Below are positions 9,212 through 36,638 of a stretch of 64,000 nt of DNA, piece after piece. Positions within the stretch are counted from its first letter, which is position 1. Each line of letters opens with the position of its first letter. The stretch is from the IMG/VR virus record IMGVR_UViG_3300042922_000250, positions 9,829 through 73,828 of that record, one strand, 5' to 3'. Made by a program: the position numbers and the translations under genes. The stretch comes from a virus. Under the pieces are notes generated by a model. That model was not told the origin of the DNA, made no database searches, and saw nothing but the letters and a program-made list of their open reading frames with translations.

Positions 9212-9595
9212 TTATTTTAATGCTAGATAACCAACAGCAAGCAAAAGAAGGTTGCGTTCGAACTTCAATTTATTGCGCTCTCGTTTTACTTCTTTCTCGT
9301 ACTGTGTTAAAAATTGATTTGCCTTCACTAAAGAGTCCTGAGTTTGAACGATTGATTTCTCTGCTAGATTCAATTTCTCTGACAATAGATTGATTTGTTT
9401 CTCTGACTTCAACAACAATTCGCTGGCTCTCTCTAACTTCTTCGCTTGCTCGTTGTTGTTGATCTCCAGCTGATTGAAGATTTGTTCTAGTCGCGTCAAT
9501 TCCTGGTCTGTAATCTCGTGAGCCATACCAATACAAGGCGACCATAGCAATAATAACAGCAATAACGATATAAATAGTTTTCCTTTGATTTTCAA
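9212..9595 (-). CDS. Signal-peptide coiled-coil protein with hydrophobic C-terminus (putative o-spanin analogue)
   Basis: TTG start with AGGAGG; SPase I-like signal ...IGMA-H; heptads; ends NLLLLAVGYLALK; paralog at 35111. Confidence 0.65.
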   Translation of the reverse strand: MKIKGKLFISLLLLLLLWSPCIGMAHEITDQELTRLEQIFNQLEINNNEQAKKLERASELLLKSEKQINLLSEKLNLAEKSIVQTQDSLVKANQFLTQYEKEVKRERNKLKFERNLLLLAVGYLALK

Positions 9596-9596
9596 T
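9270..9596 (-). CDS. Overlapping alternate-frame N-terminal TM plus coiled-coil protein (putative i-spanin)
   Basis: Frame is open from ATT 9596: IENQRKTIYIVIAVIIAMVALYWYGSRD...; same overlap conserved at 35163. Confidence 0.6.
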   Translation of the reverse strand: MENQRKTIYIVIAVIIAMVALYWYGSRDYRPGIDATRTNLQSAGDQQQRASEEVRESQRIVVEVRETNQSIVREIESSREINRSNSGLFSEGKSIFNTVRERSKTRAQ

Positions 9597-9655: not shown

Positions 9656-9805
9656 CTATGCAAAAAGCGTAAAAACGAATGCGAGTGCCAAAATGACGAT
9701 AAAAAGGCCAATCCATACTTGCGGCTTTGTGAAGCTGTGTTTGTCGGCTTTTTCCTCAACAAAGTCGTCTATTTTGTGACCAAATTTATCCAATTTGTCA
9801 TTCAT
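9656..9805 (-). CDS. Small single-TM lysis-cassette protein (49 aa)
   Basis: Manual translation MNDKLDKFGHK...VWIGLFIVILALAFVFTLFA; coupled to the amidase stop. Confidence 0.6.
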   Translation of the reverse strand: MNDKLDKFGHKIDDFVEEKADKHSFTKPQVWIGLFIVILALAFVFTLFA

Positions 9806-10319
9806 AGCTTTGTACCCCCTTCACAATTGCTTCTGCTGCTTTATTTTTCCATTCTGTCGAAGCTAGTAATTCTTCCTCTTGCAAGTTGGTAATAAATGCA
9901 AGTTCAACCAGACAGGCCGGACAGTTGGTATGTTTTAATACGTATAATCCGGAAGACTGCTTAACCCCCCTGTCGGCCAGTCCAGTTGCTTCAACTAATT
10001 CGTCTTGTACGCATCTAGCGAGATATGAAGATTTCCCGGAACCATCATAAGCCCATGTTTCTGTTCCGTGAGCCTGTGGATTAGTTGCGCCGTTGCAATG
10101 GATGGAAACAAACAGGTCTGATCCCCACGCATTTGACAAGTCACATATTTCTTCCAGACTATCAGATTGGACAAATTGAACTTCATGGCCAAAATATTTA
10201 AGCAAGTCGCAGACGGTTGTCGCGACTTCTTTTACTACATCTGCCTCTTGCAATCCATTCTGTCCGATTGCGCCAGGGTCGATTCTTGGACAATGCCCTG
10301 CATTAATTGTGATTCTCAT
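9798..10319 (-). CDS. Endolysin, N-acetylmuramoyl-L-alanine amidase (Amidase_3)
   Basis: INAGH, DPGA, E, FVSIHCN, LYVLKHT..PACLVELAFITN; start at MRITIN. Confidence 0.92.
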   Translation of the reverse strand: MRITINAGHCPRIDPGAIGQNGLQEADVVKEVATTVCDLLKYFGHEVQFVQSDSLEEICDLSNAWGSDLFVSIHCNGATNPQAHGTETWAYDGSGKSSYLARCVQDELVEATGLADRGVKQSSGLYVLKHTNCPACLVELAFITNLQEEELLASTEWKNKAAEAIVKGVQSYE

Positions 10320-10654
10320 AAATTTTCCCCTTCGTGTAAATTTGGAGTATTGGTTAATGATTGAGCTTTGCGAACAACGGCAACCTCGCAGTCGATAATA
10401 AAGCCGATGATTGAAGCAGGAATGATAATTTTCTTCCAACCCAAAGCATCACGGGCAATATCGATAGCCTTCTGCCGTTTCTGTTGATTCTCCATGTTGT
10501 CAGCTGCTCGATCAAGCTCATATATGATTTTCTGCAAAGCTTCTTTAGGCTTACCGTTTGGCAATCCTCGATAAATTACATGGGCAGCTAAAACCAAAGC
10601 GGCAATAGCGGCCAGCGCGCCGATCACAGCATACGCTATTTGTAAGTCGCTCAT
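10316..10654 (-). CDS. Putative holin
   Basis: N-terminal TM, directly upstream of the endolysin; paralog at 36288. Confidence 0.65.
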   Translation of the reverse strand: MSDLQIAYAVIGALAAIAALVLAAHVIYRGLPNGKPKEALQKIIYELDRAADNMENQQKRQKAIDIARDALGWKKIIIPASIIGFIIDCEVAVVRKAQSLTNTPNLHEGENL

Positions 10655-35073: not shown

Positions 35074-35101
35074 AAAAAAAGCCCCGCATTTCTGCGAGGC
35101 T
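35074..35101 (-). terminator. Terminator ending the myovirus late operon
   Basis: GCC.CGCA-tttc-TGCG.GGC with a T7 run on the minus strand. Confidence 0.7.
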
Positions 35102-35110
35102 AAAACCATA

Positions 35111-35539
35111 CTATTTTAACGCCAGGTACCCAACTGCCAACAGCAGTAGATTGCGCTCGAACTTAAGGCGGTTGCGTTCGGCCTTCATCTCTCGCTCGTA
35201 CTGTTTTAATGATTGATTGGCATTCTCTAAGTAGCTCTGCGCTGTCAGCAGATTGGATTTGGCTTCCTGAGATTCGCGTTTCAGCGTCAGCAATTGCGCC
35301 TGCAACGTCGCCAAGTCCTTCTGATATTCGGCCAGATTCAGCCGCGCCTGTGTTAAGTCCGTTTTCGACTGCGTCAAGTCGGCCAGCAGCCTGTTGTTGT
35401 TGATCTCCAACTGCTGAAAGATTTGCTCGAGTCGCGTCAGCTCCTGGTCCGTGATCTCGGCTGCCATACCAATAGAGGGCACCAAGAGCAAGCAGAGCAG
35501 CAAGAGCGACATACAAATATTTTTTATTTGTCGTGTCAA
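35111..35539 (-). CDS. Signal-peptide coiled-coil protein with hydrophobic C-terminus (putative o-spanin analogue)
   Basis: TTG 35539; ...VPSIGMA-AEITDQELTRLEQIF...NLLLLAVGYLALK; paralog of 9212. Confidence 0.65.
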   Translation of the reverse strand: MTRQIKNICMSLLLLCLLLVPSIGMAAEITDQELTRLEQIFQQLEINNNRLLADLTQSKTDLTQARLNLAEYQKDLATLQAQLLTLKRESQEAKSNLLTAQSYLENANQSLKQYEREMKAERNRLKFERNLLLLAVGYLALK

Positions 35540-35540
35540 T
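35163..35540 (-). CDS. Overlapping alternate-frame TM plus coiled-coil protein (putative i-spanin)
   Basis: KKYLYVALAALLALGALYWYGSRD...; ATT 35540 or TTG 35555 start. Confidence 0.6.
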   Translation of the reverse strand: MDTTNKKYLYVALAALLALGALYWYGSRDHGPGADATRANLSAVGDQQQQAAGRLDAVENGLNTGAAESGRISEGLGDVAGAIADAETRISGSQIQSADSAELLRECQSIIKTVRARDEGRTQPP

Positions 35541-35692
35541 GAGGATCGCCCCCAAACAGTTTTACCCAAAGCCGCTTTGCTCCCTGCCAGAGCCATACAA
35601 ACGGCAATTTAATGAGCCACCAGACAAACATAGCCAACATTATGGGGATGTCCTGTTTCGTGAAAAACGGATTGCTCATACTACTTCCCTCC

Positions 35693-36301
35693 TTATAATC
35701 TTGCCAATGCATCGGCGTATTCAGATTCAAACCGACTATACAGCCCATCTCTGAGCGCCGGGCTGCCGTTTGTCCATTCTGGGGTGCGACACACGTCCAG
35801 ATAAATTATCCGGATCATGTCCGCATCGAAACTGGGCGCATCCACGTATGACAGGTTAGGATAACCCAGTACCAGGCAAGCCGTTTCAAACATTTCAACA
35901 ATGTACGAGCCATACTGCACAGCGCGACTCCATATCACATCTGCCATAACAGGATGATGATTTTCGACATTAAATCCCTCGACGCGCAGAGCCTCGACCG
36001 CGGTATCGTAGTAAGCATATTTAATGTAGTCATGCTGCAGATCGCCAAACTCTGTAATGTTAGCCGCGCAGTATTTCCACGCTGCCGAGAACTCACGACT
36101 TCCGGGCTCATGCTGCCCAAGGATGTTGCCGGCAGGGTTATTCTGGTTGCGCAGCCACCGAACAAAACTGGCCGCGCTGCCTGCCGCGCTGGACAGTTGA
36201 TATGTACCGTAACTCACGCCGCCAGCGTCGCCGTAGCCGGTCGAGACTGTGCCGGGATCGCCGTTGGATTCGTATTTTGCGGAGAGTTCACCTAACCTCA
36301 T
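35693..36301 (-). CDS. Endolysin, lysozyme-fold muramidase (VgrG3 C-terminal-like)
   Basis: LGELSAKYES, GTVSTG.GD.GGVSYGTYQL, WSRAVQYG, SRFESE; follows the holin. Confidence 0.75.
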   Translation of the reverse strand: MRLGELSAKYESNGDPGTVSTGYGDAGGVSYGTYQLSSAAGSAASFVRWLRNQNNPAGNILGQHEPGSREFSAAWKYCAANITEFGDLQHDYIKYAYYDTAVEALRVEGFNVENHHPVMADVIWSRAVQYGSYIVEMFETACLVLGYPNLSYVDAPSFDADMIRIIYLDVCRTPEWTNGSPALRDGLYSRFESEYADALARL

Positions 36302-36638
36302 TATTCTCATCCTCCTGATGTAAGTCGGGCGTATTAGTTGCCGCTTGAACCTTCCGGATAAACGCCACTTCCGCATCAATCAGCCATCCGACCAGCACCT
36401 TCGGGATCATGATCCGGCGCCAGCCTAAAATATCCATGACTGCCTGCACAGCCGCAGCTCGCTTTTCCCGGTTCTGCATTTGGTCAGCATGCCGATCCAA
36501 CTCGTAGATGATTTTCTGCAGGGCAATTTTCGCACCGCCGACCGGCAACCCCCGATACAACAAATGGACAACCAGTACCAATAAAAGGACCGCCAGCAAT
36601 GCGCCAGCGGCCAAGTAAGCGATTTGTAGTTCGGTCAA
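36288..36638 (-). CDS. Putative holin
   Basis: Paralog of 10316 (YRGLP...ALQKIIYELDR.AD.M.N). Confidence 0.65.
   Translation of the reverse strand: MTELQIAYLAAGALLAVLLLVLVVHLLYRGLPVGGAKIALQKIIYELDRHADQMQNREKRAAAVQAVMDILGWRRIMIPKVLVGWLIDAEVAFIRKVQAATNTPDLHQEDENNEVR

Follow-up and report, generated by a model that had tools for sequence, protein, structure and literature searches.

Overlapping two-frame spanin-like genes in phage lysis cassettes of outer-membrane-bearing Firmicutes

The sequence examined here (the window) is a 64,000-nt stretch, positions 9,829 to 73,828, of the 73.8-kb IMG/VR virus record IMGVR_UViG_3300042922_000250. GC content is 0.36-0.45 in its first 32 kb (1-32000) and 0.46-0.52 beyond (32000-64000), and each half has its own lysis cassette on the minus strand; the record appears to hold two different prophages in tandem, each with its own copy of the locus described below, or else is a chimeric assembly. 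Each cassette ends with two almost fully overlapping same-strand open reading frames, referred to here as A and B, with B in the +1 frame relative to A. The features are, for the copy in the second half (copy 2) and then that in the first half (copy 1):

35111-35539, minus strand: frame B, copy 2 (142 aa); a basic N-terminus and Leu-rich core, a signal peptide ending PSIGMA before AE, one long heptad-rich helix, and a tail of ERN, 11 hydrophobic residues (LLLLAVGYLAL) and Lys.
35163-35555, minus strand: frame A, copy 2 (130 aa, TTG start), -1 relative to B; NKK, a 20-residue membrane helix, YWYGSRD, a putative periplasmic domain, and the conserved C-terminal motif SA.L..E.QSI...VRAR.
35080-35101, minus strand: intrinsic-terminator-like hairpin plus T-run, 10 nt after the B stop; the pair is therefore the last gene of the late or lysis operon.
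35536-35679, minus strand: small hydrophobic protein of no assigned role (47 aa from the ATG at 35679, with GGAGGG upstream), between the endolysin and the pair; no Pfam or PHROG family.
35693-36379, minus strand: endolysin of copy 2, with a T6SS_VgrG3-like_C domain (PF21277, E=1.8e-37), a lysozyme-like fold better known from type VI secretion spikes; the true start is probably an internal ATG near 36301-36310.
36288-36638, minus strand: 116-aa membrane protein upstream of the endolysin, in a holin-like position, with a homologue in copy 1 at 10316-10654; no family match.
9212-9595, minus strand: frame B, copy 1 (127 aa, short form); signal ending CIGMA before HE, helix, and a tail identical to that of copy 2, NLLLLAVGYLALK; AGGAGG lies 11 nt before the TTG start.
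9270-9596, minus strand: frame A, copy 1 (108 codons from an ATT), open and carrying the membrane helix.
9656-9805, minus strand: 49-aa tail-anchored small protein between the endolysin and the pair; homologues occupy the same position in four related loci (L004, L005, L012, and L013; L numbers denote the related loci collected here).
9798-10439, minus strand: endolysin of copy 1 (Amidase_3, PF01520, E=6.7e-44); the likely start is the ATG near 10319, overlapping the stop of the upstream gene.

Three reading frames meet at 35536-35555: the stop of the small upstream gene (TGA, 35538-35536) overlaps the TTG start of B (35539-35537) as aTTGa, and the TTG start of A lies 16 nt further upstream. 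This looks like translational coupling into both frames; a longer B frame reaching 35596 is probably not used. In copy 1, by contrast, A has no ATG, GTG, or TTG upstream of its membrane helix (9546-9596), but only an ATT at proper Shine-Dalgarno (SD) spacing, 10 nt after AGGAGG; an ATG at 9545 would give a 91-aa product without the helix.

The observation in the earlier note, of a dual-frame locus at the end of both cassettes, holds: the motifs it cited (ALYWYGSRD in A, IGMA and the identical hydrophobic tail in B) are all present, and the 45-nt difference in length between the two B copies (142 against 127 aa) is real, arising mostly from one 14-codon indel shared by both frames.

A word-based protein search found only 10 relatives of B, but scans of viral and genome collections gave 12 loci, from Sporomusa, Propionispora, and Negativicutes MAGs, in all of which the A frame is open over 110-130 codons while the third frame carries 10-20 stops. 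A profile of frame A, searched against 1.84 billion cluster representatives, found 788 proteins at E<=1e-3 and 265 at E<=1e-10; A is therefore the gene that callers usually report, and is a large family of 105-135-aa proteins in its own right. Of 401 genomes of the host class, 107 contain frame A. Twenty-seven of these loci, and 20 weaker ones, were read; in all 47 an overlapping +1 frame matches the B profile and keeps the signal, helix, and tail layout. In total, both frames are open in 61 of 61 related loci, with B always +1 to A, so that stops in one frame, which would have counted against the earlier note, were not encountered.

Some relatives depart from the common form. A truncated remnant on a second Propionispora contig (L015:4001-4168) holds only the last 55 or so codons of B together with the matching end of A, and is a decayed copy of the module. 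A 144-aa database protein (P0080, from the frame A profile search) begins as frame A, with the membrane helix and first half, and ends as frame B, with an ANQSL motif and the tail; it is either a frameshift error or mutation, or a natural fusion that would carry an anchor at both ends. One carrier contig of 2.3 kb (L014, genome G005) sits in a MAG labelled Candidatus Poribacteria, but none of 150 other genomes in a sample of that phylum has a real match, and the contig is probably mis-binned.

The maintenance of two open frames is more than chance. When the B protein was held constant and its synonymous codons were resampled from local usage, frame A stayed open in 0 of 2000 trials in 13 of 14 loci; shuffling of codons within the gene gave 0-11%, and the reciprocal test for B gave similar results. 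T at the third codon position of B, which is the first position of A and the only route to a stop in A, is 7.9% inside the overlap and 32.7% just after the A stop (Fisher 8e-78). The choice of A or G at Gln, Glu, and Lys third positions is fixed in some columns (48:1, 1:44, 40:3, 36:5) and mixed in others (chi2 = 366, df 56); column 157, for example, reads 48 A to 1 G, where the Ile of frame A is 97% conserved and the residue of frame B only 36%, while at the heptad Leu columns B is far more conserved than A (92-98% against 24-71%). The 59 related sequences in these counts are not independent, so that the p-values are descriptive, but the pattern is what dual coding predicts. At identical B residues, the same codon is used more often in the overlap than in the B-only tail in every degeneracy class (four-fold codons 0.54 against 0.32, Leu 0.45 against 0.24, two-fold codons 0.70 against 0.59).

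Amino-acid-level tests were less clear for A. An OLGenie-like count gave an omega for B of 0.36 (0.25-0.48), clear purifying selection, with synonymous sites of B near saturation (p = 0.61), but an omega for A of 1.09 (0.84-1.42). The latter is not read as neutrality, since the reference class (nonsynonymous in B, synonymous in A) is the second codon position of B, the most constrained in B, which biases the estimate upward; it is treated as uninformative, and the site-wise tests above do show constraint. The pairwise amino acid identity of A (0.39) is no higher than that of the non-coding third frame (0.37), but this comparison was rejected as a control because every base is shared by all three frames. 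A census of long off-frame ORFs in the window was noisy: a few other genes also have them by chance, as happens in single genomes, so the argument rests on conservation across loci.

Translation signals are varied. In L003, L010, and L011 each frame has its own SD sequence and ATG or GTG, 37 nt apart; in 17 loci a single SD sequence precedes two starts 4 nt apart, and in 8 loci the starts are 2 nt apart in the other order. A canonical start for A upstream of its helix exists in 52 of 59 loci, the exceptions being copy 1 of this window and L006, L031, L033, L040, L052, and L055. In copy 1 and L006 an ATT sits at proper SD spacing; this is either non-canonical initiation that tunes the A:B ratio, or decay of A in old prophages.

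Frame A has, in all loci, Lys or Arg followed by an uncharged run of about 20 residues and a polar domain, consistent with the N-in, C-out topology of an i-spanin, as inferred from the charge distribution. The polar domain is Ala/Glu/Arg/Gln-rich with no Pro in its core, and is expected to be helical. AlphaFold2, with 57 sequences, models B as a signal helix plus one continuous helix over residues 31-141 (pLDDT 92), about 16 nm if straight; Foldseek found nothing significant in the PDB for this model. A complex prediction for A (32-130) with B (27-129), with 57-row alignments, scored 0.27, under the 0.32 mark, a value that says nothing either way about binding.

B has no conserved lipobox. Most of its signals end PG(T/I/L)CSA before Q or GMA before AE, and others SFA, or SQA before E, all of signal peptidase (SPase) I type. 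The Cys found in many of them might be read as a lipobox, but it sits at -3 of the SPase I site, the residue before it is T, I, L, P, or M, and its codon is the other-frame image of hydrophobic Leu/Phe codons in A, so this reading was rejected. A few variants (L047:1496-1945, plus strand; L049, L065, and L067) do look lipobox-like, with VAGSC followed by KDSSTTTT, SAGSC, and LAGFC followed by ADTTT, and lack the usual Ala-x-Ala site after the Cys; only L047 and L049 have AGSC. These may be lipoprotein versions of B that would stay in the inner membrane without Lol.

The C-terminal tail of B is short, with 8-16 uncharged residues (median 12) against 20 for the membrane helix of A. In a recurrent sub-family (L059:1478-2005, plus strand; L066:1314-1838, minus strand; and 14 database clusters, P0166-P0179, one 90%-identity cluster having 252 members) it is replaced by a conserved, predicted beta-rich tail of about 55 residues (..GVAYGRYFRIG..RYIGARA.Y.W..SQF.LW.SVLA), modelled by AlphaFold2 as three strands of 9-12 residues with alternating hydrophobicity, although at only about pLDDT 60. 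Foldseek found nothing significant in the PDB for this variant either.

Neither protein matches a spanin family in Pfam or PHROGs, which gave only weak coiled-coil noise; a precomputed PF23649 label (FKBP15 coiled coil) is spurious, and the JGI names of relatives (EnvC, MCP, CwlO-like) are coiled-coil artefacts. The ESM Atlas returned only unnamed Bacillota and phage clusters. Neither A, B, nor a distant A relative has a tblastn hit in 50,697 deposited phage genomes.

In the loci with enough flank, the pair lies directly downstream of the endolysin, whatever its type (Amidase_3, Amidase_2, GH25, Peptidase_M15, glucosaminidase, or, here, VgrG3_C-like), with a Phage_holin_4_1 gene upstream in some loci and often a small tail-anchored protein in between. 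The hosts are outer-membrane Firmicutes. LolA was not found over its cut-off in any of 151 genomes of the class, while the same search detects it in E. coli and Caulobacter; published work reports no Lol system and no outer-membrane lipoproteins in Veillonella parvula, and no Lol in Terrabacteria (PMC10665443). In an even sample of 401 genomes of the whole phylum only three have a full-length B match, and all three encode Omp85/BamA; the other hits are partial coiled-coil noise inside long proteins.

These results suggest a dual-coding lysis module of prophages of outer-membrane-bearing Firmicutes (Negativicutes, here of the Sporomusa/Propionispora kind), and the pair is the best candidate for how these phages break an outer membrane without the usual lipoprotein. 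Dual coding is very likely; the spanin-equivalent role is the best explanation, held with moderate confidence. In this view A, read from the upstream or adjacent start, is a type II inner membrane protein with a periplasmic domain ending in its conserved basic motif, and B, read in the +1 frame, is exported by a cleavable SPase I signal as essentially one helix of about 110 residues, with a conserved N-terminal motif (Y.ITE.ELT.LE) and a short hydrophobic tail closed by Lys or Arg. The shared SD sequence with two starts 4 nt apart may make ribosomes produce both in a fixed ratio. After the holin and endolysin have removed the wall, A, rooted in the inner membrane, and B, whose C-terminal tail (or beta-strand tail in one sub-family) would engage the outer membrane, would form a periplasm-spanning assembly that destroys or fuses the outer membrane, doing the job of Rz/Rz1 without a lipoprotein because the host has no Lol pathway. 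What the analysis itself establishes is that both frames are coding and conserved, together with the topological signals, the position in the cassette, and the host distribution; production of both proteins, the localization of B, binding of A to B, and a role in lysis are inferred from sequence alone.

The earlier note's interpretation, a new spanin class whose outer membrane partner is anchored by a C-terminal peptide, is thus only partly supported. Conservation of and selection on both frames, the topologies it described, the lack of a conserved lipobox, the position in the spanin slot, and hosts without a detected LolA are all borne out; outer membrane anchoring of B by its C-terminus is plausible but unproven. 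The short tail and the beta-strand variant lean towards it, since such strands suit an outer membrane anchor and not an inner membrane one. On the other hand, a Sec-exported protein with a C-terminal hydrophobic stretch followed by Lys or Arg would by default stay in the inner membrane as a stop-transfer anchor, and no bacterial pathway is known that delivers an alpha-helical tail to the outer membrane. In its fullest form, which remains tentative, B would be a lipid-free outer membrane partner whose short Gly/Ala-rich C-terminal helix, or BAM-type beta-strand tail, anchors a 16-nm rod in the outer membrane of bacteria without Lol, with its conserved N-terminus docked on the C-terminal motif of A. 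This would be a new class of spanin, and the first lead to how an alpha-helical tail is delivered to a bacterial outer membrane, combined with near-total dual coding of two structured proteins whose ratio is set by two start codons sharing one SD sequence.

As a second possibility, both proteins might be lytic but rooted in the inner membrane, the tail of B being a type I stop-transfer anchor, so that A and B run antiparallel from the same membrane as one rod whose distal tip (the basic C-terminus of A plus the acidic N-terminal motif of B) attacks or binds the outer membrane. This would be a lipid-free cousin of the unimolecular spanin (u-spanin) layout. The N-terminal export signal and basic-ended hydrophobic segment of B fit it and the positive-inside rule, as does default Sec behavior, and the most conserved segments, the C-terminus of A and the mature N-terminus of B, are the two free ends in this model. 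However, the tail is short for an inner membrane span, the beta-strand sub-family is hard to place in an inner membrane, and a single rod of about 16 nm may not reach across the periplasm; this alternative is considered unlikely, though it is the strongest of the rivals.

A third possibility, less likely still, is that both proteins are made but are not the outer membrane disruptor, acting instead as an antiholin-like lysis-timing pair, an envelope-stress or superinfection-exclusion module, or a wall-associated factor carried at the end of the late operon. The lack of homology to any spanin, the purely inferred function, and the presence of other small membrane proteins of no assigned role in these cassettes leave room for this, but the pair is constant while holins and endolysins are swapped around it, it is confined, in the genomes sampled, to hosts with an outer membrane, and no other spanin candidate is visible in the two cassettes of this window. 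Finally, that only one frame is functional, the other staying open because Leu-rich and Gln/Glu/Lys-rich coiled-coil codons give few off-frame stops, is very unlikely: chance off-frame ORFs elsewhere in the window, the A identity no higher than that of the third frame, and the omega for A of about 1 are outweighed by the 61 of 61 open loci despite near-saturated synonymous sites, the resampling results, the avoidance of T-ending codons only as far as the A stop, the mosaic conservation, and the start and SD signals of each frame.

Spanins are defined, and searched for, by the o-spanin lipobox (PMC6139136; PMC12596118), and a 2025 survey that filters o-spanins by the lipid box reports none for Firmicutes (PMC12596118). 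Phages of outer-membrane Firmicutes, which include abundant gut and oral genera, therefore look spanin-less; this pair would fill that gap and show that the last step of lysis can be rebuilt without lipoprotein trafficking. Literature searches for spanins together with Negativicutes or Veillonella found no paper describing this system. It is one of the most extreme cases of dual coding in a cellular or phage genome, with two proteins of 110-145 aa, one modelled and the other expected to be helical, sharing nearly all their codons and conserved across a bacterial class, which makes it useful for testing overlap-gene detection methods and the limits of dN/dS-type tests. Gene callers report only one of the two frames at any given locus, so that annotation pipelines miss half the system. 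The tail variants of B offer a handle on protein targeting to the outer membrane in bacteria without Lol.

Among known systems, the beta-tail sub-family alone resembles trimeric-autotransporter or TolC-type coiled coils with an outer membrane beta anchor, in having a long helix followed by a few C-terminal amphipathic strands of membrane-spanning length, but there is no Pfam match to such anchors at E<=1 and no Foldseek match, and the strands are predicted at low confidence. The disruptin of phage phiKT, gp28 (bioRxiv 10.1101/515445), is also a lipoprotein-free way for a phage to break the outer membrane, but is a small cationic, antimicrobial-peptide-like protein without a signal or membrane anchors, whereas here there are two putatively anchored coiled-coil-type proteins. 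The u-spanin gp11 of phage T1 shares with B alone the linear layout of an N-terminal export signal and a C-terminal hydrophobic segment; u-spanins are defined by a lipoylation signal plus a C-terminal transmembrane domain (PMC6139136), and the gp11 signal places its N-terminus in the outer membrane by way of Lol, whereas B has an SPase I signal in a host class in which LolA was not found. The periplasmic domain of gp11 is beta-rich while B is modelled as one helix, and B always comes with A.

Closest are the two-component spanins with embedded or overlapped genes, lambda Rz/Rz1 and P2 LysB/LysC (Kongari et al. 2018, PMC6139136). They too are the last genes of the lysis cassette, after the endolysin, with two products from overlapping same-strand (+1) frames, one of them a class II (N-in, C-out) inner membrane protein with a periplasmic domain, in hosts with an outer membrane. 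There is no sequence similarity to any spanin family in Pfam or PHROGs, and B differs from their second partner in having an SPase I signal and no conserved lipobox, in being as long as its own partner and one long predicted helix rather than a short proline-rich peptide, and in carrying a C-terminal hydrophobic (or predicted beta-strand) tail. The overlap here is nearly complete, with the two starts side by side and often sharing one SD sequence. Frame A has the inferred topology of an i-spanin, but B lacks the lipobox that defines an o-spanin, so that the pair would work like, but is not a member of, the described spanins.
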